Source of the DNA: Candidatus Omnitrophota bacterium
Lineage (GTDB): Bacteria; Omnitrophota; Gorgyraeia; Gygaellales; Profunditerraquicolaceae
Length of the DNA: 64,000 nt
NCBI GenBank assembly: GCA_028716705.1
Contig: JAQUPI010000001.1
Location: forward strand, 1,614-65,613
Direction: 5' to 3'
Shown here: positions 48,860 to 60,940 of the stretch, one piece after another
Layout of the letters: each line of letters starts with the position of its first letter
How positions within the stretch are numbered: the first letter of the stretch is position 1
Translations under genes and position numbers: made by a program
Notes under the pieces: generated by a model
Database searches by the model: none
What the model was told of the DNA's origin: nothing
What the model saw: only the letters and a program-made list of their open reading frames with translations

Positions 48860-49489
48860 GTGAATATCCCCATCGTCTTCGAAGATGAATGGCTTTTGGT
48901 ATTGAATAAACCTTCCGGACTGCTTACCGTACCCACCCCCAAAATGGAATCCCGCACACTGAGCAGTATCCTTAATGATGACCTGAAAGAAAGAGGCATC
49001 GCCTACCGCTTATATCCCTGCCACCGCCTGGACCGGGAAACATCAGGCCTGATCATTTACGCTAAAGGAAAATCCATACAGAAAAAAATGATGGATGAAT
49101 TCAGGGGGAAAACGATAAAAAAAACATACATCGCTTTCTTACGCGAAAGCCCCCCCAAAGATAAAGGGAGGATCGTTTGTCCCATAGAAGGCCAAAACGC
49201 GCTTACCGAATACAGGGTTATCGAAAAGCGCAAAGGCTTCAGCGTGGCTGAAGCGATGCCGTTGACCGGCAGGACCAATCAGATAAGGATACATTTTAAA
49301 CAGATAGGGCATCCTTTGATAGGCGAGTCAAAATTCGCCTTCCGGAGGGATTTTAAGATCAAGGCAAAGCGCGCCATGCTGCATGCTAAAAAACTGGAGT
49401 TTATCCATCCAGTAACGCGTAAATTGTTATCTCTTAAGTCGCCTTTGCCGACTGATATGCTGGATTTTCTAAAAAGACATGAAAATTAA
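48860..49489 (+). CDS. RluA-family pseudouridine synthase
   Basis: GTG start; HRLDRETSGL catalytic Asp motif. Confidence 0.75.
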   Translation: MNIPIVFEDEWLLVLNKPSGLLTVPTPKMESRTLSSILNDDLKERGIAYRLYPCHRLDRETSGLIIYAKGKSIQKKMMDEFRGKTIKKTYIAFLRESPPKDKGRIVCPIEGQNALTEYRVIEKRKGFSVAEAMPLTGRTNQIRIHFKQIGHPLIGESKFAFRRDFKIKAKRAMLHAKKLEFIHPVTRKLLSLKSPLPTDMLDFLKRHEN

Positions 49490-50735
49490 TTCCGGGAAAA
49501 CGAAAAGGGGATTTTTGATATTTTCCTGGGCTCTGTATGACCTGGCGAACCAGTTTTTTGCCCTGAATATCGTAAGCCTGTATTTTGTGCGCTGGATAAC
49601 CCTTGAGATGGGGGCTCCGGAGATTTTTTACAGCATAGCGTTCGGAGTGTCTACGCTTTTCGTGGCTTTAGCGGGCCCAATCCTCGGGACGATCTCAGAC
49701 ATGACAGGCAGGCGCAGGTTCTTTCTGGTGAGCCTTACCCTTTTATCCGTCCTTTTTACCATGATGCTGGGTATGTATCAAAACATCATATACGCTTTAT
49801 TGATATTTATCATAGCCAATTTCGGATGCCAGACGGCGATCGTTTTCTATAATGCCATTCTTGTAAATATCACTCCCCGGCGCAGGGTCGGGCTGGTATC
49901 GGGATTCGGCAAGACCATGGGATATACGGGGGCCATAGCGGCGTTATACCTCATAAAGCCGTTCGTTTTAAAGAGCGGATACCGGGCTACATTTTTTCCC
50001 ACCGGGGTCTTATTTTTGCTCTTCGCTTTACCCTGCATGCTTTTTATAAAAGATAGGCCGCCCACTCAGGCGCTGGCGTGGAGTTATTTCGGGAAGAAAA
50101 AATTAGCCGAGATCTTTTCGATCCTGAAAACAACCGCGTTTGATACATATAAATTCCCGGGGCTTTTGGATTTTCTGAAGGCCTCATTTTGCGGTTTGTG
50201 CGCGGTGAACGCGGTCATTCTGTTTATGTCGATATATGCCACGCGCGCCTTTGGTTTAAATGAGGCCGGGGTGATCGCTTTGGTTTCTTACTCGACGCTC
50301 TTTGCCATCGGCGGAAGCTTCCTCTCCGGTTTCATCAGCGACTATTTCGGCCACAAACGCAGCCTGATAGCGGTATTTATCCTGTGGGGTATTTCTTTTA
50401 CGCTGGGGGCGTTTGTCAGGGATCCGCGCTGGTATTTGGCCATAGGCGCGCTGACCGGCGCCTCTTTGGGTTCGACATGGGTGGTTTCGCGCGCCATGGC
50501 AATAAATATCGTGCCCGCGCACAAGGTAGGAGAAGTATTCGGGCTCTTTAACCTTGTGGGTTACTTTTCGGCTATCATAGGCGCTTTCTTCTGGGGAGCG
50601 ATCATCTTTTTCCTTTCCCGTTTCGGCGAATCAGGGTACCGCATCGCGCTTGTCAGTTTAAATCTGTTCCTTGTCCTGGGGGTTCTCTTCCTTTTGCGCA
50701 TACCTGAAGATAGAAAAAAACCGGATGAGCCATGA
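49479..50735 (+). CDS. MFS transporter, LplT-like (lysophospholipid transporter) by context
   Basis: About 12 TM segments; ATGA overlap with the downstream Aas-like gene, mirroring E. coli lplT-aas. Confidence 0.6.
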   Translation: MKINSGKTKRGFLIFSWALYDLANQFFALNIVSLYFVRWITLEMGAPEIFYSIAFGVSTLFVALAGPILGTISDMTGRRRFFLVSLTLLSVLFTMMLGMYQNIIYALLIFIIANFGCQTAIVFYNAILVNITPRRRVGLVSGFGKTMGYTGAIAALYLIKPFVLKSGYRATFFPTGVLFLLFALPCMLFIKDRPPTQALAWSYFGKKKLAEIFSILKTTAFDTYKFPGLLDFLKASFCGLCAVNAVILFMSIYATRAFGLNEAGVIALVSYSTLFAIGGSFLSGFISDYFGHKRSLIAVFILWGISFTLGAFVRDPRWYLAIGALTGASLGSTWVVSRAMAINIVPAHKVGEVFGLFNLVGYFSAIIGAFFWGAIIFFLSRFGESGYRIALVSLNLFLVLGVLFLLRIPEDRKKPDEP

Positions 50736-53392
50736 ATAAAACATTAACGATCCCCGCCATCTTTAATGAAGTCGCTTCCAAGTTTTCCGATAAGACAGCC
50801 CTGAAGATCAAGCGCGACGGAGATTGGTTCAAACTTAGATACAGCCAGGTCAGGGAAAACGCCTTAAAAGTAGCGGCGTTCCTGATTAAGGAAGGTTGCA
50901 GGAAGAATGACGCCGCCTGCATTATTCTAGAAAATTGTCCGGAATGGCCGGTGATTTATCTGGGTATCGTCTACGCGGGCTTGACCTGCGTCCCCCTTGA
51001 CGCGCACTTAACCGGCCAGGAAGTAAAAAGCCTTGCCGCCGATAGCGGGGCAAAGATATTATTTTGCTCACGCGAGATATATTCAAGTAAAATTGAAAAA
51101 AATATCGGAGACGATAGAATTAAGCCCTTTGTCCTGGAAAACTTTTCCGATATAGAAAACATCACGGCTCCGCCGGCCTTTTTGCCGGAGGTCGATCCGG
51201 ATGATATAGCCTCTTTAATTTATACCTCAGGAACTACCGCGCTTCCCAAAGGGGTCCTATTAAGCCACAATAACATATGCTCAAACGCCATGAGCCTTCT
51301 AAAACTGGATATCTGCCTGGAATCGGATAGCACGCTTTCCATTCTGCCGTTACATCATACTTACGCCTTTATGGTTGCCTTGGTCGTGCCTCTTTTCTTA
51401 GGGGCGACAGTCACATATTGCCCCAGTTTTAAGGCTGAAGACATAAGCCGGACCATAAGAGAAGGCCGGATCTCTATTTTTCCGGGCGTGCCGCAGCTTT
51501 TTTCCATGCTGCATAAAGCAATATCCGAACGCGTGAAGAAAATCCCTCGCGTCCTCCTATTCTTTTTATTGCCTTTTATCCGGCCAAAGATACGCCAGGA
51601 GCTCGGTAACAGCTTGAGGCTTTTGGTCAGCGGCGGAGCAAGGCTTGACCCGCGAACCGGCCGCGGCTTATCGCGCTTACTTGGCATCAAGATGGTCGAG
51701 GGCTACGGCTTGACGGAAACTTCTCCTGTCGTGACTTTAAACCCGGTCAAGAAAATAAAATTCGGCTCTGTGGGCTTACCTATTCCGGATGTCCAGATCA
51801 GGATTTTGAACCCGGATAGATCGGGAGTGGGGCAGGTGCTGATCAAGGGCCCGAATGTAATGCGCGGATATTTTAAGCATCCTGAATGGAGCCGGGCTGT
51901 GATAAAAGACGGCTGGTTTTATTCCGGGGACCTGGGCTATATCGACGCGGAGGGCTACCTTTTCCTTGTCGGCCGGGAGAAGGACGTGATCGTATTGAGT
52001 TCAGGGAAGAATATTTATCCTGAGGAATTGGAAGAATATTACGGTAAGAGCCCGTTCATAAAGGAAATTTGTATTATGGACGTAAAGCAGGAGCGGTTCG
52101 GCCAATTGATCGATACCCTTCAGGCGGTAGTGGTCCCGGACCTGGAATATTTCAAGCGCAAGAAAATGTCTGATGTGCAGGGAAAGATCCGCTGGGAACT
52201 GGAAAACCTCGCCAGCGCCCTGCCCTCCCACAACCACATTATGGGGTTTATCCTCACCAAGGATGAATTGCCGCGGACGGCACTGAGGAAGATCAAAAGA
52301 TATAAGGTTAAGGAGAAATATTTTTCCAGAGGAGAACCCAACGGGAAACCCAATGGCGAAGGCCGCCTTGAAGCCGCGCAGGAGGCGGTTTTTTCCGAAG
52401 AAGACGCCAGGCTCCTGGATAAAGAGGTCGCCAGAAAGACCATTGATTATATTTCCAGAGAGATAAAAAGACCAGTAAATCTCAACAGTCATCTTGAGAT
52501 AGACCTGGGAATAGATTCCTTGACCAAGGTGGACCTGGCGCTGGGGCTGGAAGAACTTTTTAAGGTCAAACTCCCTGAAGAATTATTCTATAGCATCTCC
52601 ACCATCAAAGAACTTATTATAAAGCTCTCCGAAATAACCGGCGAAGGCCGGCATAAAGCCGATGAAACACGAAAAACCTGGAGCCAGATCCTTTCCAAGC
52701 CTTCGGATAAGAAATTACAGGCGGAGCCGCGTTTCGCGGATAAGTTATTCACCCTCGCGTGCAAAATTTCATTTACAATTATTTTAAAAGTCTTTTGGCT
52801 GTTGAAGGTAAAAGGGAGGGATAATCTGCCCGCATCCGGGCCTTATCTGGTTTGCCCCAACCACGCCAGCTATTTAGACGGATTTTTTGTTTTTATCGGC
52901 CTTTCCCGCAGGCTTACTGACCTATTCTTCCTGGGTTATAGCGACATTCTGGAACATCCCCTTTTAAAATGGGCGATCAAGCCGGCAAGGCTTATCCCGA
53001 TCGACCCAAATACAAACTTAACAGACGCCATGCAGGCGGTATCTTATCTGCTTTCACAGGGGAAGATCGTTTGTATCTTTCCCGAAGGAAGGCGCTCTAT
53101 AAATGAGAACATAGGAAAGTTCAAAAAAGGAATAGGGATATTGATCAGGGAGCTGAATATTCCCGTCGTTCCGGCCTATATTAAAGGTTCGTATAAGTCT
53201 TGGCCCAGGACGAAGCGGTTCCCGCGTTTTTATCCGGTAAAGGTAATTTTCGGGCGGCCGAAGACAGCGAAAGACCTGTTAGAAGGAAAGGCCGGCAAAG
53301 ACGATTATGAGACCATTGCGGCTAATTTAAGGGAAGAGGTCATAGGATTGGCGGATCCACAAAATTTACAGAAAGTAGACTCAAACCATTGA
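50732..53392 (+). CDS. Tri-domain acyl-AMP ligase (FadD-like) / acyl-carrier (phosphopantetheine-binding) / PlsC-type lysophospholipid acyltransferase fusion (Aas-like with permuted domain order)
   Basis: AMP-binding motif YTSGTTALPKGV; carrier DLGIDSLTKVDL; acyltransferase HxxxxD (CPNHASYLDG) and FPEGRRS blocks. Confidence 0.75.
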   Translation: MNKTLTIPAIFNEVASKFSDKTALKIKRDGDWFKLRYSQVRENALKVAAFLIKEGCRKNDAACIILENCPEWPVIYLGIVYAGLTCVPLDAHLTGQEVKSLAADSGAKILFCSREIYSSKIEKNIGDDRIKPFVLENFSDIENITAPPAFLPEVDPDDIASLIYTSGTTALPKGVLLSHNNICSNAMSLLKLDICLESDSTLSILPLHHTYAFMVALVVPLFLGATVTYCPSFKAEDISRTIREGRISIFPGVPQLFSMLHKAISERVKKIPRVLLFFLLPFIRPKIRQELGNSLRLLVSGGARLDPRTGRGLSRLLGIKMVEGYGLTETSPVVTLNPVKKIKFGSVGLPIPDVQIRILNPDRSGVGQVLIKGPNVMRGYFKHPEWSRAVIKDGWFYSGDLGYIDAEGYLFLVGREKDVIVLSSGKNIYPEELEEYYGKSPFIKEICIMDVKQERFGQLIDTLQAVVVPDLEYFKRKKMSDVQGKIRWELENLASALPSHNHIMGFILTKDELPRTALRKIKRYKVKEKYFSRGEPNGKPNGEGRLEAAQEAVFSEEDARLLDKEVARKTIDYISREIKRPVNLNSHLEIDLGIDSLTKVDLALGLEELFKVKLPEELFYSISTIKELIIKLSEITGEGRHKADETRKTWSQILSKPSDKKLQAEPRFADKLFTLACKISFTIILKVFWLLKVKGRDNLPASGPYLVCPNHASYLDGFFVFIGLSRRLTDLFFLGYSDILEHPLLKWAIKPARLIPIDPNTNLTDAMQAVSYLLSQGKIVCIFPEGRRSINENIGKFKKGIGILIRELNIPVVPAYIKGSYKSWPRTKRFPRFYPVKVIFGRPKTAKDLLEGKAGKDDYETIAANLREEVIGLADPQNLQKVDSNH

Positions 53393-53416
53393 CAAATTTC
53401 GGCTTAGTAGTAGAAT
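53389..53416 (+). promoter_or_regulatory. Sigma70-like promoter TTGACA-N16-TAGAAT upstream of the rhs gene
   Basis: -35 53389-94 (overlaps the upstream stop), -10 53411-16; RBS GAAAGGA before ATG 53472. Confidence 0.45.
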
Positions 53417-53471
53417 GCTGACAAATTAAGAGATTGTTCTTGGTTATTTATTAAAACTCAGAAAGGATCCA

Positions 53472-56400
53472 ATGTCTGAGATAAAAGCCAAGGAAATAAG
53501 AACAAAACTCAGGGTCATATTTATGACCCTATTTTTTTGCCTGTTTAGTAAGCTTGCATTTGCAGAAACCACAGCCAGTATATCCGTATCCGGAAGCAGA
53601 GGCGTCATTGATATTTCAACATCCACTTTTTTTTCTGTGGACCCGGATACCGGAAGGACCGGCGGGACTGTAGCCATATACAGGGACAGTTCCAAGATCT
53701 ACGAAGCCTCTACTACAAAATATCCCTCTTGGGCTTATTCTTTTAGATACAGCACGATAGAGTTTATTGATGGCTCCCATACTTTTTCGGTCGTCGCTAC
53801 TTCGTGGGACGGCTCCTCTGCTTCAGATTCGCAAGCAATTCAGACAGATAATTCCCCCCGAATAAATATAATCTCTCCGCAAGGCGAAACGCGAGGAGTA
53901 GTAGACGTTAACATATCCTACAGCTACCCAAGCAGTCATAACACTTCTCCCAATATGTACCTTGATTTATACACAAATCCCGCTAATCCGAATCCAAGCT
54001 ATACCATGTATCTTGCCCTGAGCAATACCGCTGAAACGCAAGGAAACTGGATTCTTAAAATCGATACCACTGCTTGGAGAGACGGGGCCAGGACCATAAG
54101 GGCTGTTACCAGGAATATCAGAAACGCGGTGACTGCCACCTCGGATGTCGTGAGTAATAACACCCCTTATGTCATTTTATCTCCCGGAGACGGAAAAATA
54201 ACGAGAGGGATAATTCCCGTCAATGTAACTTACAGCTTTCCCAGCACTGCTTCAGCTGTAGGTATTCCCAATGCATATTTGACTTTTTATATCGATAATG
54301 TCGCGAAAAGCGCATATTGGTTCGCTTTAAGCGATACTTCCGAGACTACGGGCATTTGGAGCTTTAATATAGATACGAGTAATTGGGCGGAAGGCAGCGC
54401 TCATACTTTAAAAATTACAACACTGACGCACCCCAACCAGGCTATCATGGTCTCGAATGTAATAGTCGCAAAGAAAACTACCGAAGTCCCGCTCACCCGT
54501 CTTCTTTCCAAGGATAAGGGCACGGTTGTGGGCGAGCCAATCAATGTGGCTACCGGCAATATGTTCACTTCGCAAACCGATATCCTCATTCCTGGCCGCG
54601 AGATCCCGCTTGAGCTCTCCCGCACCTATAACAGCCAGGATGACTTTGGAGGGCAATTCGGTTATGGCTGGCGCTCTAATTTTGATATCGTTTTAACCGA
54701 TGAATCCGACCGGGTCATTGAGGTGGATGAAACAGGGGTCTATACCATTTACGATAAGGATTCCGATGGAACCTATAAACCCTCAGCCGGGAAATATTCT
54801 GTTTTAACCAAGAATCCCGAAGGAACCTATACGATATTAAGGAAGAGCGGCCGTAAACTCTACTTTGACAGCCAGGGTTGGCTTATAAAAATAGGAGGCA
54901 GGAACGGGAACTTTATCAATATCCTGCGCGACTCCAACGGCACGATAACAGAGATCAGCGACGCCTCAACCAGGAAATTATTATTTACCGCTGACAGCCA
55001 GGGAAGGATTGTCCGGGTAACTGACCAGCAGGAAAGAACCTTTAAATACGAATATGACACAAACGGCGATCTCATCAAAACCATTGACCCCTTAAATCAG
55101 GAGACTCTTTATCAATACGATAGTAATCACAACCTCATCCGGCAAACCGATGCCAATAGCCATTCGTTATACTTTGAATACGATTCCTCTGATCGCGCCT
55201 ATCATTCCTGGCAGGATGAGCATAATAATGAGGTGACTTTATCCTTTGACCCGGAAAATAAGACTACCATTACAACCGATTCTTTAGGCAATGCTACTAA
55301 ATACGAATATGACGATTACGGCTTAGTTACCAAAATCACCGACAGCCAGAATAAGGTCCAGAGTTTTATCTGGGATAGCGACTTAAATAAAACCGCATCC
55401 ACTGACCAGAATGGGAACACCGCTCTTTTCACCTATGACTCAAGGGGCAACCTCTTGACCGTAAAAGACCCGCTCAATAACACCGCCGCCTTTACCTATG
55501 AGCCGGATTTTGACCTGGTAAGCTCTATTACGGATGCCCTGGGAGCTGTCACGCAGTATACCTACGATGCCAGAGGTAATTTAATTAAAATAAAAGACGC
55601 CCTGGATAATGCCACTGACTGCATTTACAATGTGCAAGGAGACCTTATCCAGCTAAAAGACGCGAACAATAATATTACTAATTTTACCTATGATGCTTTT
55701 GGCAATCTCGCCCAGGCAGTTGATGCCCTGAATAACCCTACAAGCTTTACTTATGATATACTTGGCAACCTCGTTCGGACTACGGATGCCGTAGGCAACG
55801 CTACTCAATTTACCTACGATGCGTTAAACCGGCTTATCCGGATAACTTACCCGGATAATTCCCAGGCAGCCAGGGCTTATGATCCCGTAGGTAATTTGAT
55901 AACCTCTACTGATCCTAACAACCAAATCACCAGCTATGCCTATGATACAGTCAACCGCCTCATCCAGGTAACCGATCCTCAAGGCAATATTACTCAATGT
56001 GCTTATGACAGCGAAGGAAACCGCACCTCTGCCGTTGATGCCGCGGGAAACGTTCAGAGGTATTTCTACGATAGTTTAAACCGGCCAATCCGCACCCTTG
56101 ATGCTTTAAATAACCAGGCCAATTTTGTTTACGACCCTGCGGGAAATCTTATTTCCCGGACCGATGCCAATGGCAATACCATAAACTATACCTATGATTC
56201 CCTGAACCGTCTGCTCAAAAAACAATACCCGGATTCAACCGAGGAGGCTTTCGACTATGATCCCCGGGGAAATATGCTCAGCTGTTCTGATCCTGAGATC
56301 TCCTATAATTTGAGCTATGACGCGTTAGGCAGGCTAATCGATCTAACCGATTCGAATAACGCGAAGCTTTCCTACGCCTATGATCCCGTGGGAAATAAGA

Positions 56401-57965
56401 TCAAAACGACCACTCCCGAAGACAGAACTATCAGTTACTATTACGACGGATTAAATCAGCTGGCTTCTCTTGTGGATATCTACGGAAAATCCACCACCTA
56501 TACCTATGACAGCTTGGGCAGGAGGATAAAAACCACGCTTCCTAACTCAACTACCGCATCCTATACTTATGATGCCTTAAGCCGGCTGCTTAGTTTAACC
56601 AATAAAACCAGCTCAGGCGCGATCATCTCAAGCTATACCTATACTTATGATAGTGTGGGTAATCGCCTCACCAGAGTAGAGCCGCATTTAAAGACCTCCT
56701 ATGCCTACGATGATCTATATCAGCTTACCCAAAGCTCCTTCACCAGGCTTAAAGGCCACAAAAGCGATATAGAGGAAGATCTCGAGGAGGATGACGATGA
56801 AGATGATGACGAAGAAGAAAAAGACAGCCGCAAAGAGCCAAAAGAACGCTTGACTGAAGCCTATACCTATGATGTTCTGGGCAATCGTCTCACCTCCTTG
56901 AAAGATACCTACACTTATAATCCCCTGAATCAGCTCTTGGCCACAGATAAATATGCCTACGAATACGACCATAACGGCAATCTCATCCGTAAGACCGAGC
57001 TTGACGAAAACGAAGCCCCGGTTACCTTTAATTATGAATACGATTACGAGAACAGGTTAAAGCAGGTCCGGATCGAAAAAGAAGACGAAAGTAAGATAAT
57101 CTCCTTTGGCTATGATCCTTTCGGAAGAAGAATAAGAAAAACAATACAAAAAGAAGATAAGACAGAGACCACAACCTACATATATGACAACGAGGATATC
57201 ATCCTGGAATACCGCAGGGATGGTTCAAAGCCGTCCAAACAAGAAGTAGTCCGCTACACCCACGGTCCGGGCACGGATGAGCCGATTTCGATGGAGCGAA
57301 AGAAAAAACGCTTCTACTACCACTATGACGGCTTAGGCAGCGTCACTGAATTTACCAGCCAGAAACAAAAGACAGCTGAGCGCTACGAATATGACTCCTT
57401 TGGCAATCTCTACCGCCAAGGCAACCGCACCAAAAACACATACACCTTCACCGGCAGGGAATTCGATAAAGAAACCGGCCTCTACTACTACCGCAACCGT
57501 TACTATGATCCTAAAGTAGGCAGGTTCATTACCCAGGATCCATTGGGCATGGTCGACGGTCCGAATATGTATGCGTATGTCAGGAATAATCCAATTACTT
57601 TTGTAGATCCGTGGGGATGGTGTAAAAAAACTGGATGGTGGCCAAGATGGTTAAATTTAATTGTGCCTGGCTATAGAAATTATGGTGGTCCATCTAGAAG
57701 TGGGCCTTTGCTACCAGAAGACTTATTGGATGCTGCATTTCAAAGGCATGATATTGGTTATAGGGAAGGAAATTTAGATTTTGCTGATTTGCAATTATTA
57801 AATGATCTTTCTAATCTTCCGCCGGATCCTCGAAACTGGGGAGAAGGAGTAAATCCTATTTATGCTAGACTATACCGGAAAAGTGCATTTATTATTTTTG
57901 CGACTCGACAAACAATCCGACAAGGTACAAAAGAACTAGAACGATTAGAATATCTTGCAGTGTAA
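53472..57965 (+). CDS. rhs: Rhs/YD-repeat polymorphic toxin (1497 aa): Sec signal peptide, three tandem ~105-aa N-terminal repeat domains, RHS shell with YD repeats, DPxGL/PWGW autoproteolysis motif, C-terminal PLA2-like toxin domain
   Basis: Signal MTLFFCLFSKLAFA; RHS hallmark VATGNMF...GYGWRSNFD; dozens of YxYDxxGNL repeats; FITQDPLGMVDGPNMYAYVRNNPITFVDPWGW core end; then a 114-aa AT-rich tail. Confidence 0.9.
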   Translation: MSEIKAKEIRTKLRVIFMTLFFCLFSKLAFAETTASISVSGSRGVIDISTSTFFSVDPDTGRTGGTVAIYRDSSKIYEASTTKYPSWAYSFRYSTIEFIDGSHTFSVVATSWDGSSASDSQAIQTDNSPRINIISPQGETRGVVDVNISYSYPSSHNTSPNMYLDLYTNPANPNPSYTMYLALSNTAETQGNWILKIDTTAWRDGARTIRAVTRNIRNAVTATSDVVSNNTPYVILSPGDGKITRGIIPVNVTYSFPSTASAVGIPNAYLTFYIDNVAKSAYWFALSDTSETTGIWSFNIDTSNWAEGSAHTLKITTLTHPNQAIMVSNVIVAKKTTEVPLTRLLSKDKGTVVGEPINVATGNMFTSQTDILIPGREIPLELSRTYNSQDDFGGQFGYGWRSNFDIVLTDESDRVIEVDETGVYTIYDKDSDGTYKPSAGKYSVLTKNPEGTYTILRKSGRKLYFDSQGWLIKIGGRNGNFINILRDSNGTITEISDASTRKLLFTADSQGRIVRVTDQQERTFKYEYDTNGDLIKTIDPLNQETLYQYDSNHNLIRQTDANSHSLYFEYDSSDRAYHSWQDEHNNEVTLSFDPENKTTITTDSLGNATKYEYDDYGLVTKITDSQNKVQSFIWDSDLNKTASTDQNGNTALFTYDSRGNLLTVKDPLNNTAAFTYEPDFDLVSSITDALGAVTQYTYDARGNLIKIKDALDNATDCIYNVQGDLIQLKDANNNITNFTYDAFGNLAQAVDALNNPTSFTYDILGNLVRTTDAVGNATQFTYDALNRLIRITYPDNSQAARAYDPVGNLITSTDPNNQITSYAYDTVNRLIQVTDPQGNITQCAYDSEGNRTSAVDAAGNVQRYFYDSLNRPIRTLDALNNQANFVYDPAGNLISRTDANGNTINYTYDSLNRLLKKQYPDSTEEAFDYDPRGNMLSCSDPEISYNLSYDALGRLIDLTDSNNAKLSYAYDPVGNKIKTTTPEDRTISYYYDGLNQLASLVDIYGKSTTYTYDSLGRRIKTTLPNSTTASYTYDALSRLLSLTNKTSSGAIISSYTYTYDSVGNRLTRVEPHLKTSYAYDDLYQLTQSSFTRLKGHKSDIEEDLEEDDDEDDDEEEKDSRKEPKERLTEAYTYDVLGNRLTSLKDTYTYNPLNQLLATDKYAYEYDHNGNLIRKTELDENEAPVTFNYEYDYENRLKQVRIEKEDESKIISFGYDPFGRRIRKTIQKEDKTETTTYIYDNEDIILEYRRDGSKPSKQEVVRYTHGPGTDEPISMERKKKRFYYHYDGLGSVTEFTSQKQKTAERYEYDSFGNLYRQGNRTKNTYTFTGREFDKETGLYYYRNRYYDPKVGRFITQDPLGMVDGPNMYAYVRNNPITFVDPWGWCKKTGWWPRWLNLIVPGYRNYGGPSRSGPLLPEDLLDAAFQRHDIGYREGNLDFADLQLLNDLSNLPPDPRNWGEGVNPIYARLYRKSAFIIFATRQTIRQGTKELERLEYLAV
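56893..57505 (+). repeat. 613-bp segment of rhs (RHS core end) that is 100% identical to 58375..58987 in the orphan cassette
   Basis: Nucleotide identity checked by eye at both ends and in the middle (offset 1482 bp); identity breaks at 57506/58988, then decays. Confidence 0.85.
57621..57962 (+). other. C-terminal toxin domain 1 of Rhs: phospholipase A2-like (parvovirus VP1u/PLA2 motif)
   Basis: YRNYGGPSRSGPLLPEDLLDAAFQRHDIGY aligns with the viral PLA2 consensus YxGPG...DAAAKEHDEAY (Ca loop + HD catalytic dyad with the same about 18-aa spacing). Confidence 0.55.
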
Positions 57966-57978
57966 AGGAGGGATAAGA

Positions 57979-58212
57979 ATGAAACTCAAAGATAATCAAA
58001 TAATTAAAATATTTGTATTGTCGTTTCTCCTTATGGAATTTATGTTAATTAGTTTTTGCTTCGTTTCATGCGAAAATGCTCCTCTATTAATTCGCTTGAT
58101 AATTATCTTATTAGTTATAATTTGTTGTTTATGCCTATTTTATTTTATTTTTAGATTTTTAATCTGGATTATAAAAAAAATTGTAATTGTGAAGAATAAA
58201 TTAACACGATAA
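57979..58212 (+). CDS. Putative cognate immunity protein 1: 77-aa hydrophobic (2-3 TM) membrane protein
   Basis: RBS AAAGGAGGG; Cys/Ile/Leu-rich TM helices; immediately downstream of the toxin; AT-rich. Confidence 0.5.
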   Translation: MKLKDNQIIKIFVLSFLLMEFMLISFCFVSCENAPLLIRLIIILLVIICCLCLFYFIFRFLIWIIKKIVIVKNKLTR

Positions 58213-58256
58213 GAATAATAATGGAATTCCGGGGAGGTACCAATTCCGGGTAGAAG

Positions 58257-58320
58257 ACGCTCTTTATAATTTTTTCTTGATTTCATTAGATATGAAATAA
58301 TTCCTTCCGCCTTCTAATCA
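58257..58320 (+). repeat. Junction repeat R1 (about 65 bp) downstream of immunity gene 1; imperfect copy at 59873..59940
   Basis: CGCTCTTTATAA...AATAATTCCTTCC...TTCTA shared blocks; about 75% identity. Confidence 0.6.
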
Positions 58321-58328
58321 AATCTGCG

Positions 58329-59453
58329 ATGAAAATAGAAATATCCAAAATCACCCCCTTAGGTAACCGTTTAACCTCCTTGAAAGATACCTACACTTAT
58401 AATCCCCTGAATCAGCTCTTGGCCACAGATAAATATGCCTACGAATACGACCATAACGGCAATCTCATCCGTAAGACCGAGCTTGACGAAAACGAAGCCC
58501 CGGTTACCTTTAATTATGAATACGATTACGAGAACAGGTTAAAGCAGGTCCGGATCGAAAAAGAAGACGAAAGTAAGATAATCTCCTTTGGCTATGATCC
58601 TTTCGGAAGAAGAATAAGAAAAACAATACAAAAAGAAGATAAGACAGAGACCACAACCTACATATATGACAACGAGGATATCATCCTGGAATACCGCAGG
58701 GATGGTTCAAAGCCGTCCAAACAAGAAGTAGTCCGCTACACCCACGGTCCGGGCACGGATGAGCCGATTTCGATGGAGCGAAAGAAAAAACGCTTCTACT
58801 ACCACTATGACGGCTTAGGCAGCGTCACTGAATTTACCAGCCAGAAACAAAAGACAGCTGAGCGCTACGAATATGACTCCTTTGGCAATCTCTACCGCCA
58901 AGGCAACCGCACCAAAAACACATACACCTTCACCGGCAGGGAATTCGATAAAGAAACCGGCCTCTACTACTACCGCAACCGTTACTACGACCCTGCGATC
59001 GGCCGCTTCATCACCCAGGACCCGCTGGGGATGGTCGATGGGCCGAATATGTATACGTATGTAAACAATAATCCGGTGAATTTTGTGGATCCGTGGGGAT
59101 TGTGCGGGACAGATAAAAGTAAGCATTGGGGTCCAGAATGGTTAGAAAAATTAATTCCTGATTATGAAGGATATGGCGGGCCTGATAGAACAGATCTAAC
59201 TTTTAAAACAAGACCAACAGATAGCATGGACGAGATATTTATGCAACATGATTTCTTATGGTTTAAGGGATATGGAAAACAAGCAGATACAATAATATTT
59301 TCTAATCTTGTTAATCTACCTTTAAATCCCTATAACTGGGAAAATAAACCGAGAAATCTTATTTGGGCTGTGTTATATCGTGAAAGCGCTATTATATATT
59401 TTGGATATAAGGAGATAATAAAAGGAGAAGCGAATGATAAAAAAACCAACTAG
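58329..59453 (+). CDS. Orphan rhs C-terminal cassette: truncated RHS core fragment (homology from about 58363) plus alternative diverged PLA2-like toxin domain (59103..59450)
   Basis: The N-terminal MKIEISK is not homologous and lacks an RBS; from LGNRLTSLKD onward it is identical or near-identical to Rhs residues about 1134-1376, then ends DPWGLCG + 116-aa tail with YEGYGGP...DEIFMQHDFLW. Confidence 0.7.
   Translation: MKIEISKITPLGNRLTSLKDTYTYNPLNQLLATDKYAYEYDHNGNLIRKTELDENEAPVTFNYEYDYENRLKQVRIEKEDESKIISFGYDPFGRRIRKTIQKEDKTETTTYIYDNEDIILEYRRDGSKPSKQEVVRYTHGPGTDEPISMERKKKRFYYHYDGLGSVTEFTSQKQKTAERYEYDSFGNLYRQGNRTKNTYTFTGREFDKETGLYYYRNRYYDPAIGRFITQDPLGMVDGPNMYTYVNNNPVNFVDPWGLCGTDKSKHWGPEWLEKLIPDYEGYGGPDRTDLTFKTRPTDSMDEIFMQHDFLWFKGYGKQADTIIFSNLVNLPLNPYNWENKPRNLIWAVLYRESAIIYFGYKEIIKGEANDKKTN
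58375..58987 (+). repeat. Second copy of the 613-bp identical rhs segment
   Basis: See 56893..57505. Confidence 0.85.
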
Positions 59454-59793
59454 AGTTATTTTAATTTCAGGTCTAGGTTTAATTATTGGAATTTTTAATA
59501 TTTTTGTATACTCTAATCATAATAGTCCGATTTTTCTTACTATCGGAGTTACATGTTTTATACTAAGTATAGGTTTATTTAAATTAAATAATTGGGCACG
59601 TATGCTGACTATAATTATGGCTAGCGTGTTCATTATAATTTATGGTGCATTGCTAATATATACATTTGCATATTACGAGCAACATCATGGGTTTGCCGGA
59701 ATCGCTCTTATTTTTCACTTGCCTTTATTATTGCTATCCATTTGGTCTTTAGATTGTTTGAATAACCCAGGTATTAAAACATTATTTCATTGA
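59434..59793 (+). CDS. Putative cognate immunity protein 2: 119-aa polytopic membrane protein
   Basis: RBS AAAGGAGAAG; 3-4 predicted TM helices; overlaps the orphan toxin stop; AT-rich. Confidence 0.5.
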   Translation: MIKKPTRVILISGLGLIIGIFNIFVYSNHNSPIFLTIGVTCFILSIGLFKLNNWARMLTIIMASVFIIIYGALLIYTFAYYEQHHGFAGIALIFHLPLLLLSIWSLDCLNNPGIKTLFH

Positions 59794-59872
59794 AACAACC
59801 AATTATGGGAATTCTAGGGACACAATACTTATTTTAATTAAGTAATTGTGGAAAAATAACAAAAATAGCAAG

Positions 59873-59940
59873 GCGCTCTTTATAAGTCTTTCTCATCCGT
59901 TTAGGTATAAAATAATTCCTTCCATCGATTCTATTAAACT
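59873..59940 (+). repeat. Junction repeat R2 (imperfect copy of 58257..58320) downstream of immunity gene 2
   Basis: See R1. Confidence 0.6.
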
Positions 59941-60002
59941 TTCATTAACCTTAAAGAAAGGGGGCGCTTCTATATTTCGCATCCTTTTCTCCAAACCAAC
60001 CC

Positions 60003-60030
60003 TTTACTAATCCGTAAATTATTGTATAAT
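60003..60030 (+). promoter_or_regulatory. Sigma70-like promoter TTTACT-N16-TATAAT upstream of the PfkB kinase gene
   Basis: Read directly; 10 nt before ATG 60041. Confidence 0.4.
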
Positions 60031-60040
60031 ACCTGCTAAT

Positions 60041-60940
60041 ATGAGCATAATCGTATTGGGAACAGTGGCATTGGACACGGTAAAGACGCCGTTTGGCAGC
60101 AAAAAGCATATGCTGGGCGGCTCTGCGGCGCATTTTTCCATGTCGGCGCGCCTGTTCGCCAAGGTGAATTTAGTCGCGATCATCGGAGAGGACTTTCCTC
60201 CTAAATATATCGAATTTCTGCGTAAAAAAGGCCTGATCCTGACTTCATTGATCAAGGAAAAGGGAAGGACTTTTAAATGGCAGGGGGAATACAGGGGAGA
60301 CTTGAATACCGCCCTTACCTTAAATACAGAGCTGGGCGTGCTTTCGGCGTTCCGTCCTTGCATTTCCAAAGAACAGAGGAAGATAAAACATATTTTCCTG
60401 GCCAATGTTGACCCGGATATCCAGAGGCACCTGCTTTCCAGCATGCAGTCCCCGCAGCTGGTGGGGTTGGACAGCATGAACTACTGGATACACCATAAGC
60501 GTCAGGGGCTGGTACGCCTTTTAAAGAAGGTGGATATCTATGTCGCCAATGATCAGGAAGCCAGGGATCTATCGGGAGAAACGAACTTGATCAAAGCGGC
60601 TAAATGTTTATCCAGCTACGGCCCGAAGATGGTCCTGATCAAAAAAGGCGAGCACGGCGTAATTTTTTACACCGATAAATTCATCATCGCCATACCCGCC
60701 TACCCCACGGATAAAGTGATCGACCCGACGGGAGCCGGGGATACCTTTGCCGGAGGGTTTATGGGTTATTTGACCAAGGCAAGGAAGATAAATTCTGAAA
60801 CACTTAAGCAGGCGATCGCCTTCGGCACGATCGCGGCTTCCTTCAATGTGGAGGGTTTCGGCCTGGAAAGGACTTCCAGGCTTAGTTTAAGCGAATTGGA
60901 GCGCAGGCTTTCCCGTTTCAGGGAGCTTGTTGTTTTTTAA
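60041..60940 (+). CDS. PfkB/ribokinase-family sugar kinase
   Basis: DPTGAGDTFAGGF PfkB signature 2; GG N-terminal motif. Confidence 0.8.
   Translation: MSIIVLGTVALDTVKTPFGSKKHMLGGSAAHFSMSARLFAKVNLVAIIGEDFPPKYIEFLRKKGLILTSLIKEKGRTFKWQGEYRGDLNTALTLNTELGVLSAFRPCISKEQRKIKHIFLANVDPDIQRHLLSSMQSPQLVGLDSMNYWIHHKRQGLVRLLKKVDIYVANDQEARDLSGETNLIKAAKCLSSYGPKMVLIKKGEHGVIFYTDKFIIAIPAYPTDKVIDPTGAGDTFAGGFMGYLTKARKINSETLKQAIAFGTIAASFNVEGFGLERTSRLSLSELERRLSRFRELVVF

Follow-up and report, generated by a model that had tools for sequence, protein, structure and literature searches.

The window analysed here, a 64-kb stretch from a short-read metagenome bin of Candidatus Omnitrophota, carries a full-length ('main') rhs gene that is followed by a 5'-truncated orphan rhs cassette, and the two share an exact repeat of 614 bp at the 3' end of the sequence coding for the Rhs shell. 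We consider it probable that this repeat is the tail of an old orphan, a tail whose (near-)identity to the main gene has been maintained by conversion and which serves toxin switching by homologous recombination. Diverged edges on both sides of the repeat, strain-specific substitutions common to both copies and alternative arrangements of the same locus in other metagenomes point to this reading.

Organisation of the locus

The main Rhs protein comprises, from N- to C-terminus, a signal-like sequence, DUF6531, YD/RHS repeats, the Rhs-associated core domain and a variable C-terminal domain, CT1 (Table 1). Judged by eye the N-terminus resembles a Sec-type signal, and domain searches returned PF20148 (E=6e-22), PF05593 (E=5.9e-100, 13 stretches of RHS repeats), TIGR01643 (E=2.6e-82) and the core domain TIGR03696 at aa 1307-1382 (E=2e-27). 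The core is closed by PITFVDPWG (57591-57617), fitting the motif PxxxxDPxG(L), and resemblance to other tails ends directly after DPWG. No PAAR domain was found in the 1497-aa protein by Pfam and NCBIfam and no T6SS genes within about 6 kb upstream and 10 kb downstream, so that the protein is not classed as a T6SS-delivered effector; the neighbours in that range are housekeeping genes (NadA, pseudouridine synthase, MFS, acyl-ligase/acyltransferase, PfkB, YqeY and complex I-like genes).

In the orphan ORF the last ~243 core residues are joined to a different C-terminal domain, and the domain search returned TIGR03696 (aa 182-258, E=1.3e-27) and one YD repeat only, with neither DUF6531 nor a signal sequence. 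Core 3' sequence is thus kept and combined with a distinct CT and its own small membrane-protein gene, and export and delivery regions are absent, as defines an orphan module; the assignment of main and orphan gene in the original prediction was borne out. GC content is 22-37% in the CT/imm regions versus ~45% in the core, as expected for imported cassettes. The conserved element behind each immunity gene had no match in Rfam.

Table 1. Features of the rhs locus, in positions of the window.
Feature	Position	Strand	Description
LplT/Aas-like lysophospholipid-repair operon	49479-53392		directly upstream of main rhs
Full-length ('main') rhs gene	53472..57965	+	1497 aa
Diverged left edge	56877..56891	+	LGNRL; orphan counterpart 58359-58373
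Repeat copy 1 (R)	56892..57505	+	614 bp; Rhs core residues 1141-1345; 100% match to 58374-58987
Diverged right flank	57506..57617	+	ends at PxxxxDPWG demarcation motif; counterpart 58988-59099
CT1	57618..57962	+	predicted 115-aa C-terminal toxin domain, PLA2-like: YGGP loop and HD dyad
imm1	57979..58212	+	77-aa hydrophobic membrane protein; presumed CT1 immunity protein
Conserved intergenic element, copy 1	58254..58308	+	~55 nt; one after each immunity gene
Orphan rhs-CT2/imm2 cassette	58329-59793		5'-truncated
Orphan rhs-CT2 ORF	58329..59453	+	374 aa; truncated 5' at core residue ~1136
Repeat copy 2 (R)	58374..58987	+	614 bp; at head of orphan cassette
CT2	59100..59450	+	predicted 117-aa PLA2-like toxin domain
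imm2	59434..59793	+	119-aa multi-pass membrane protein; presumed CT2 immunity protein
Conserved intergenic element, copy 2	59861..59925	+	between imm2 and pfkB

Extent and origin of the repeat

Two segments of 613 bp (56893..57505 and 58375..58987) had been predicted to be identical; exact pairwise comparison found no mismatch between them and extended the maximal tract to 614 bp (56892-57505 and 58374-58987), of which the window holds two copies only, separated by 868 bp. Since the offset of 1482 equals 3 x 494, the repeat is in frame in both ORFs. A chance origin is excluded, because the homologous flanks are merely 60-78% identical. At the left edge 9/15 nt agree (60%), and LGNRL is encoded by both copies with four codons differing synonymously; in the right flank 87/112 nt agree (78%), and 13 of the 19 differing codons are synonymous. 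Exact identity breaks off within the Tyr codon of RYYDP (57504-57506), 31 nt upstream of DPLG (57537-57548) and 100 nt upstream of DPWG (57606-57617), and not, as originally claimed, exactly at the DPxG-encoding region. Positions 57506-57560 form a 55-bp patch with 16 SNPs relative to the equivalent junction in two related metagenome contigs, L003 (JGI 3300029288) and L090 (ENA ERZ27247363).

The same two contigs bear on the age of the orphan. Compared with their strain, the window differs at 57351, 57353 and 57415 in the main copy and at exactly matching sites, 58833, 58835 and 58897, in the orphan copy; main and orphan copies therefore co-vary within each strain. A very recent tandem duplication or cassette displacement, in which the identity would be due to a young orphan without any conversion, is unlikely, even though 614 bp pass without a mismatch and displacement is the standard model of orphan formation for Rhs loci (PMC3150448). 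A fresh duplication is expected to stay identical until homology stops abruptly, whereas here both edges are homologous yet strongly diverged at mostly synonymous sites, which argues that the orphan is old. L003 and L090, from another strain and sample, also contain the CT2 orphan with its long tail and this same left edge, and the orphan hence predates the strain split; moreover, every strain's orphan copy bears the alleles of that strain's main copy. Diverged edges together with strain-specific SNPs in both copies favour gene conversion inside an old repeat; of the two origins first proposed, conversion agrees better with the data than recent duplication.

Assembly of the repeat

As the window derives from short reads, zero mismatches and the co-variation of the paralogues may partly have been forced by assembly, since SNP bubbles are popped by de Bruijn assemblers and a collapsed repeat is walked through twice. 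The assembly-collapse hazard that had been pointed out is real, as other assemblies fragment at the repeat: read-level Logan contigs at k=31 branch exactly at its borders, with L091 (SRR22315508) covering window positions 57476-58403 and L087 and L089 both beginning at 58958. Because these independent assemblies break or branch there, the borders are not specific to the present MAG assembly. The whole structure could be an artefact, in which strain variants core-CT1 and core-CT2 were joined via a shared graph node, or two similar copies were collapsed and written twice; the origin from a metagenome bin whose sister records carry SPAdes NODE names, the fragmentation elsewhere and an ENA sample with more than one arrangement (L002, L090) would fit this. 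We nevertheless regard it as quite unlikely. The junction of imm1, spacer and repeat, which comprises a unique spacer of 161 bp and the diverged LGNRL edge, was independently assembled in L003, L090 and L091, the last of which is 100% identical to the window; simple concatenation should have left a sharp junction without diverged homology; and no linear path other than core-R-CT1-imm1-spacer-R-CT2 makes use of every graph edge. Identical main and orphan proteins also occur in two NCBI MAG records. A few SNPs may still have been collapsed in the repeat. We infer that the absence of mismatches is due to conversion and not to collapse in assembly.

Alternative arrangements in other metagenomes

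The locus is arranged differently elsewhere. L003 displays the order main-CTa-imm-641aa-[tail]CT(abhydrolase)-imm-[236-bp tail]CT1-imm1-[long tail]CT2, so that CT1-imm1, which belongs to the main gene in the window, is placed downstream as an orphan after two other cassettes. In L090 a main-type core (57415A) is fused to a CT1-orphan-type tail, a recombinant of main core and CT1 orphan with its crossover within 57416-57512. L002 is devoid of CT1-imm1 and reads as a deletion between two orphans: it is identical to L003 through tail offset 151, and to the CT2 tail starting at offset 18, which puts the crossover in a 134-bp stretch of shared tail. L002 and L090 were both assembled with MEGAHIT from a mixed metagenome, the ENA sample evidently containing more than one arrangement; their crossover stretches measure 134 and 97 bp and so fall below k=141, an argument, if not a decisive one, against graph-walk chimeras. 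From the contigs the direction between arrangements could be read either way, as deletion or as cassette insertion.

The anatomy of the locus, the mosaic make-up of its tails and the occurrence of other arrangements are seen directly in the sequences. These other arrangements of the same locus identify the tails as used recombination substrates, and the role predicted for the shared tract gained support from the three variants with junctions inside the shared tail. Going by the contig sequences, they suggest that cassette shuffling via tails operates in natural populations. That the 614-bp tract itself recombines we likewise infer, the main-CT2 fusion being a predicted product that short contigs would not reveal; among the contigs and reads at hand, none joins unique core from upstream of 56892 to CT2.

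Putative toxin domains and presumed immunity proteins

CT1 and CT2 share 38% aa identity (E=9e-22) and are homologous; the toxin tails are divergent, as first described, but not unrelated. They appear to be divergent members of one rare, cysteine-poor PLA2-like family. A profile of the family matched more than 60 PDB sequences of secreted PLA2 (E~1e-5), aligning the Ca2+-loop (YGxYxGxG) and the catalytic His-Asp dyad to PLA2 residues ~23-60 (E=1.4e-5), and Y14, G19, H42 and D43 are invariant across 35 family members. PLA2s were also the best fold matches in Foldseek, albeit weak ones (E=0.18, TM 0.35-0.5). Pfam gave no match for CT1 and CT2 even at E<=10, and sub-threshold matches in relatives only. 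The family thus resembles the secreted PLA2 superfamily (PF00068 / PF08398; bovine pancreatic PLA2, 1bp2; rice PLA2, 2wg7) in Ca2+-loop and His-Asp dyad and differs from it in having no disulfide-forming cysteines, CT1 and CT2 themselves lying below the Pfam threshold. Other members form the C-termini of 1228-, 1431-, 1465- and 3805-aa proteins (P0141, P0144, P0155, P0159), as expected of orphan CTs, which recur on full-length delivery proteins.

The start of imm1 lies 14 nt beyond the rhs stop codon and is preceded by a strong ribosome-binding site (AGGAGG), and in L092, an unrelated contig, a homologue sits directly behind a related CT. The start of imm2, which is not similar to imm1, overlaps the end of CT2, and the pair co-occurs in seven contigs. 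The linkage of toxin and small membrane protein seems conserved, and CT1 and CT2 are presumably active phospholipases neutralised by these membrane proteins.

Proposed mechanism and role of the orphan

In the explanation we prefer, rhs-CT2/imm2 would be a promoter-less and export-less cassette with the 614-bp tract as its 5' tail, and intrachromosomal gene conversion would maintain the (near-)identity between the interior of the orphan and the main gene. RecA-type homologous recombination could then act on the in-frame direct repeat: a crossover would remove a unit of 1482 bp (end of the core, CT1, imm1 and spacer) and fuse the delivery-competent Rhs to CT2 in a predicted in-frame product of 1499 aa, with imm2 staying downstream, while unequal exchange would duplicate the unit. 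A strain could thereby switch the PLA2-like toxin it deploys, the array acting as a store of alternative toxin/immunity pairs. A point against this is that a deletion which removes imm1 should be selected against among siblings armed with CT1.

Alternatively, the orphan might be an independently expressed, intracellular toxin-antitoxin-like module, as has been reported for the Salmonella orphan rhs, and the shared sequence would then be incidental to its function; a role of Rhs orphans as type II TA modules has been described (PMC7043789). The frame of 374 aa is uninterrupted and begins with an ATG of its own (58329), and the orphan is probably co-transcribed, since no + strand terminator was predicted between imm1 and the orphan. 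However, no obvious Shine-Dalgarno sequence was seen by eye before this ATG, in contrast to the AGGAGG of imm1, and the long ORF is not conserved, as the frame is disrupted or the tail shorter in the equivalents of L002 and L003. Selection at the protein level also leaves identity at every synonymous site unexplained, and such a module would in any case be compatible with recombination; we give this alternative little credence.

A further reading, which combines a self-contained, RecA-driven cassette system with operon-based tolerance to phospholipase A2 damage, appears very improbable. Each unit would consist of tail, PLA2-like CT, membrane immunity gene and the conserved ~55-nt element, would be excised as a circle and re-inserted by tail-tail recombination, and conversion would keep the tails recombination-competent. 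If the LplT/Aas-like operon conferred generic tolerance to phospholipase A2 damage, cells could survive the loss of cognate immunity at a toxin switch, so that the duplication step of Salmonella would be bypassed.

Comparison with known systems

Toxin switching by homology between main and orphan genes, as preferred here, was experimentally demonstrated in Salmonella (Koskiniemi et al. 2014, PMC3967940). The rhs locus of Salmonella enterica Typhimurium LT2 has the same order, a full-length rhs with immunity gene and then a 5'-truncated orphan with CT/immunity, and there too several hundred bp of core are common to both, recombination fusing the main gene to the orphan CT. The region through which they recombine in LT2 measures 522 bp at 95% identity (PMC3967940), compared with 614 bp at 100% in the present locus. 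Unlike LT2, the host is an uncultivated member of the Omnitrophota, there is no T6SS context, the N-terminus is Sec-type signal-like, both CTs are paralogous within one PLA2-like family, and the rearrangements are read from metagenome contigs and not from experiments. The orphan rhs-CT/rhsI and cdiA-CT/cdiI arrays of Enterobacteriaceae (Poole et al. 2011, PMC3150448) likewise possess CTs demarcated by PxxxxDPxG(L) and a variable length of retained core, and modules that are orphans in one strain occur as part of full-length genes in another (PMC3150448), as is the case here; in contrast to them, L003 interleaves a 641-aa non-Rhs gene and an alpha/beta-hydrolase CT, and the ~55-nt element follows each immunity gene. 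Homologous recombination among repeats is likewise reported to reshape toxin/immunity arrays with tandem paralogues in T7SS immunity arrays (PMC9484751) and in the sequential displacement of T6SS effector/immunity genes in Vibrio (PMC5361080), although secretion systems and repeated units are different.

Because the repeat fragments or collapses short-read assemblies, MAG-derived toxin repertoires at such loci can be wrong. The locus shows the known architecture of main and orphan gene in the uncultivated and poorly understood phylum Omnitrophota, and it is unusual that several alternative arrangements were caught in environmental data. The locus may furthermore define a rare, cysteine-poor PLA2-like toxin family with candidate membrane-embedded immunity proteins.

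Structure of the rhs locus

Direct comparison of the two repeat copies gave 614 bp without a single mismatch, and a repeat search returned the same pair. The identical segments of 613 bp claimed in the original prediction fall inside this exact tract, and no scattered mismatches appeared in the pairwise alignment of the two copies. A BLAST search of the entire window with the tract as query found these two copies and no others. They are offset by 1482 bp, i.e., 494 codons, separated by 868 bp, and start at codon phase 0, each in its own ORF.

Features of the rhs locus (positions in the window unless another contig is named)
Feature	Position	Length	Remarks
Main rhs ORF	53472-57965	1497 aa	holds repeat copy 1; DUF6531, PF05593, TIGR03696
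N-terminal region before DUF6531	53560-54500	Rhs residues ~30-345	no Pfam match
Acidic low-complexity insert	56772-56830		EEDLEEDDDEDDDEEEKD; Rhs shell, just upstream of repeat
Repeat copy 1	56892-57505	614 bp	
55-bp patch	57506-57560	55 bp	main gene; 16 SNPs vs same junction in L090 and L003
DPLG motif	57537-57548		
Demarcating PxxxxDPWG	57606-57617		
imm1	57979-58212	77 aa	small ORF after main gene, preceded by AGGAGG
~55-nt element	58254-58308; 59861-59925; L003 4860-4924	~55 nt	GCTCTTTATAA...TTAGRTATRAAATAATTCCTTCC
Orphan rhs-CT2 ORF	58329-59453	374 aa	holds repeat copy 2
Repeat copy 2	58374-58987	614 bp	
imm2	59434-59793	119 aa	small ORF overlapping orphan end
641-aa ORF	L003 1668-3593 (= L002 1163-3088)	641 aa	signal-like N-terminus, no Pfam match, between toxin cassettes
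P0072	L003 3683-4396		orphan with alpha/beta-hydrolase CT (lipase-like, GHSWGG), not PLA2-like

The main ORF displays 13 RHS-repeat matches (PF05593, E=5.9e-100) in addition to DUF6531, and its residues 1307-1382 match the model of the Rhs-associated core domain (TIGR03696). Judged by eye, its N-terminus (MSEIKAKEIRTKLRVIFMTLFFCLFSKLAFA/ET) resembles a Sec signal peptide, and the region before DUF6531 contains two internal repeats of ~110 aa (INIISPQGETRGVVDVNISYSYPS... and YVILSPGDGKITRGIIPVNVTYSFPS...), which are possibly Ig-like surface domains. A D/E-rich insert similar to the acidic insert occurs at the equivalent place in a distant homologue, P0013. PAAR or VgrG features were not detected in the 1497-aa protein, nor were T6SS genes among the neighbours of its gene.

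The 374-aa ORF retains only the last ~243 core residues (TIGR03696 at 182-258), in front of a C-terminal domain other than that of the main gene, and is hence a 5'-truncated orphan. Judged by eye, its ATG lacks a Shine-Dalgarno-like sequence, in contrast to the small ORF imm1. GC content is ~45% in the core and lower, at 22-37%, in the segments of C-terminal toxin domains (CTs) and immunity genes. The products of imm1 and imm2 are both strongly hydrophobic and showed no relationship to each other. Exact-protein lookups matched the 77-aa version of imm1 and imm2, and returned nothing for the orphan ORF or an 85-aa version of the imm1 ORF. Counts from a promoter and terminator scan were no better than in shuffled sequence, and Rfam had no match on 53000-60500. 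Across the 64 kb, almost all gene-like long ORFs (at least 150 aa) lie on the + strand, a strong co-orientation.

Edges of identity and origin of the tract

On the right, identity ends within the Tyr codon of RYYDP, 31 nt before DPLG and 100 nt before the demarcating PxxxxDPWG, and not exactly at the DPxG-encoding region as had been claimed. Homology continues from 57506 to 57617, where only 87 of 112 nt are identical and 13 of the 19 differing codons are synonymous. In the 15 nt before the tract both copies encode LGNRL with four synonymously different codons. The perfect tract is thus embedded in older homology. Recent duplication or gene conversion had been proposed for its origin. Recent duplication would yield identity up to a sharp non-homologous boundary, instead of the diverged homology found at the edges. 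Constraint at the protein level was rejected, since the flanks, as constrained but unconverted sequence, encode nearly the same protein and yet carry many synonymous differences, so that constraint does not account for identity at every synonymous site. Gene conversion fits the sequence pattern, as it cannot reach the extreme ends of a homology block.

Compared with the strain represented by the metagenomic contigs L003 and L090, the window differs at 57351, 57353 and 57415 in the main copy and at the corresponding 58833, 58835 and 58897 in the orphan copy; main and orphan copies hence agree within each strain. In de Bruijn assembly, however, repeats that are nearly identical are merged and their consensus is output twice, and since the source, a Candidatus Omnitrophota MAG, is a short-read bin, the zero mismatches and the co-variation of the copies may be partly forced. 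This assembly hazard, foreseen in the original prediction, was indeed seen, as L003 stops and L004 starts inside the long tail, tail meaning Rhs core 3' sequence kept in front of a CT. Three observations argue against an outright artefact: three independent assemblies contain the junction of imm1, spacer and tail, in which the spacer is unique and the edge diverged (L003, L090 and L091, the last 100% identical to 57476-58403 of the window); k=31 contigs start or stop exactly 30 nt inside the repeat borders; and the main and orphan proteins are the same in two NCBI MAG records.

The same locus in other samples

The locus recurs at 97-100% identity, upstream of the same pfkB-yqeY genes as in the window, on contigs from JGI 3300029288 (L003, L004), ENA ERZ27247363 (L002, L090) and Logan assemblies; the Logan contigs that match the window exactly derive from SRR22315506, SRR22315507 and SRR22315508. 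The DNA scan of metagenomes gave matches solely from contigs of JGI sample 3300029288, and the scan of genome contigs contained no close relative of the source MAG (best 53% identity).

In L003 the main core is followed by CTa (another PLA2-like CT), a 132-aa membrane protein and the 641-aa gene, then by a tail with the alpha/beta-hydrolase CT (protein P0072), a 113-aa membrane protein, a 236-bp tail with CT1, imm1, the spacer and the long tail. Whereas the window has CT1 on its main gene, L003 thus carries it as a downstream orphan. With a lipase-like CT beside PLA2-like ones, the array as a whole seems to be given over to toxins that target lipids and have membrane proteins as partners. The 641-aa ORF of the L002 and L003 arrays is absent from the window.

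L090 begins with a main-type core including the L003-main allele 57415A and has switched to a CT1-orphan-type tail by one of two sites: 57506, at which no other tail agrees with the window, or 57513, the first site separating the L003-main from the L003 CT1-orphan tail; CT1, imm1, the spacer and the long tail follow. Judged from these sites, L090 is what recombination of the L003 main gene with the CT1 orphan of L003 should produce, and the crossover falls inside 57416-57512. L002 shows no difference from L003 as far as tail offset 151 and none from the CT2 tail from offset 18 onward; it is therefore a recombinant between two orphans that has lost CT1-imm1, with the crossover in a shared stretch of 134 bp. 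Both crossover stretches are below the assembler k of 141, which argues against simple graph-walk chimeras. Nine tails, when aligned, showed short shared blocks in a mosaic pattern. The tails of this locus are thus in use as recombination substrates, where each change could be a deletion or an insertion. What the original prediction observed is confirmed, and its view of the repeat as such a substrate is supported, with some details corrected.

Over CT1, imm1 and spacer (813 bp) the window and L090 do not differ. The 55-bp patch, by contrast, is unlike all four tail types known; it is a short foreign patch that determines where the 614-bp identity stops on the right in the window genome, and with the L090 allele in its place, identity would extend to 57538. 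Because of this unique patch, an origin of the window's main-CT1 junction as a simple recombinant of the L003 main gene and the L003 CT1 orphan was rejected; L090 is such a simple recombinant.

A conserved ~55-nt element, with a GAATTCCGGGGA-like motif shortly upstream, occurs after each immunity gene and before each orphan tail or pfkB. It was found nowhere else in the window and had no Rfam match; it may be a regulatory site or what remains of a cassette end.

Toxin domains and immunity partners

The toxin tails, taken as divergent in the original prediction, are homologous: CT1 (115 aa) and CT2 (117 aa) share 38% identity (E=9e-22). An exhaustive phmmer search of 1.84 billion proteins yielded only 51 cluster representatives related to CT2 at E<=1e-3, several of which form the C-termini of proteins 1200-3800 aa long. 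Alignment of 35 family members revealed the consensus YGNYGGP...D.(M/L)D..F..HD with invariant Y14, G19, D36, H42, D43 and F93. Against the PDB, the family profile matched >60 distinct secreted PLA2 sequences at E~1e-5, pairing the Ca2+ loop and the catalytic His-Asp; CT2 as a single sequence gave chance-level matches only. A confident AF2 model (pLDDT 93) had PLA2s as top Foldseek PDB matches, although weakly (E=0.18, TM 0.35-0.5).

Pfam had no match for CT1, CT2 or imm1, and only sub-threshold ones for imm2 (membrane-protein DUF models) and CT relatives (PLA2). NCBIfam matches of imm1 and imm2 were sub-threshold and at chance level, and PADLOC returned nothing for imm1, imm2 or the orphan ORF. 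An imm1 homologue directly after a related CT on an unrelated contig supports the toxin/immunity pairing. The CTs are probably cysteine-poor PLA2-like phospholipases, an activity deduced from these comparisons, with membrane-embedded immunity proteins.

Directly upstream of the rhs gene with its PLA2-looking toxins, an 886-aa gene with AMP-binding, PP-binding and PlsC-acyltransferase domains overlaps at its start with an MFS transporter gene (49479-53392). The product of the 886-aa gene matches acyl-[ACP]--phospholipid O-acyltransferase below threshold. The pair resembles lysophospholipid repair of the LplT/Aas type, which is described as shielding E. coli against phospholipase damage (PMC11416262).

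Comparison with known systems

The layout matches the rhs-main/rhs-CT-orphan system of Salmonella LT2, where recombination through 522 bp at 95% identity joins the orphan CT to the main gene (PMC3967940), as well as the orphan arrays of Poole et al. (PMC3150448). If crossover took place in the 614-bp tract, 1482 bp would be lost, imm1 among them, and an in-frame Rhs-CT2 protein of 1499 aa would result; in Salmonella, loss of the immunity gene in such a crossover is thought to require prior duplication. The genome-contig scan served to gauge the frequency of main/orphan repeats: of 79 related Rhs loci from other genomes, 14 have direct repeats that reach 150 bp and 85% identity or more, typically 300-2400 bp long at 88-97%. 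Such homology is thus common, and only the perfect identity is unusual in the window. The main/orphan layout itself was already known, and what the window adds to it is modest: a series of natural rearrangements, the conversion signature and a rare PLA2-like toxin family in Omnitrophota.
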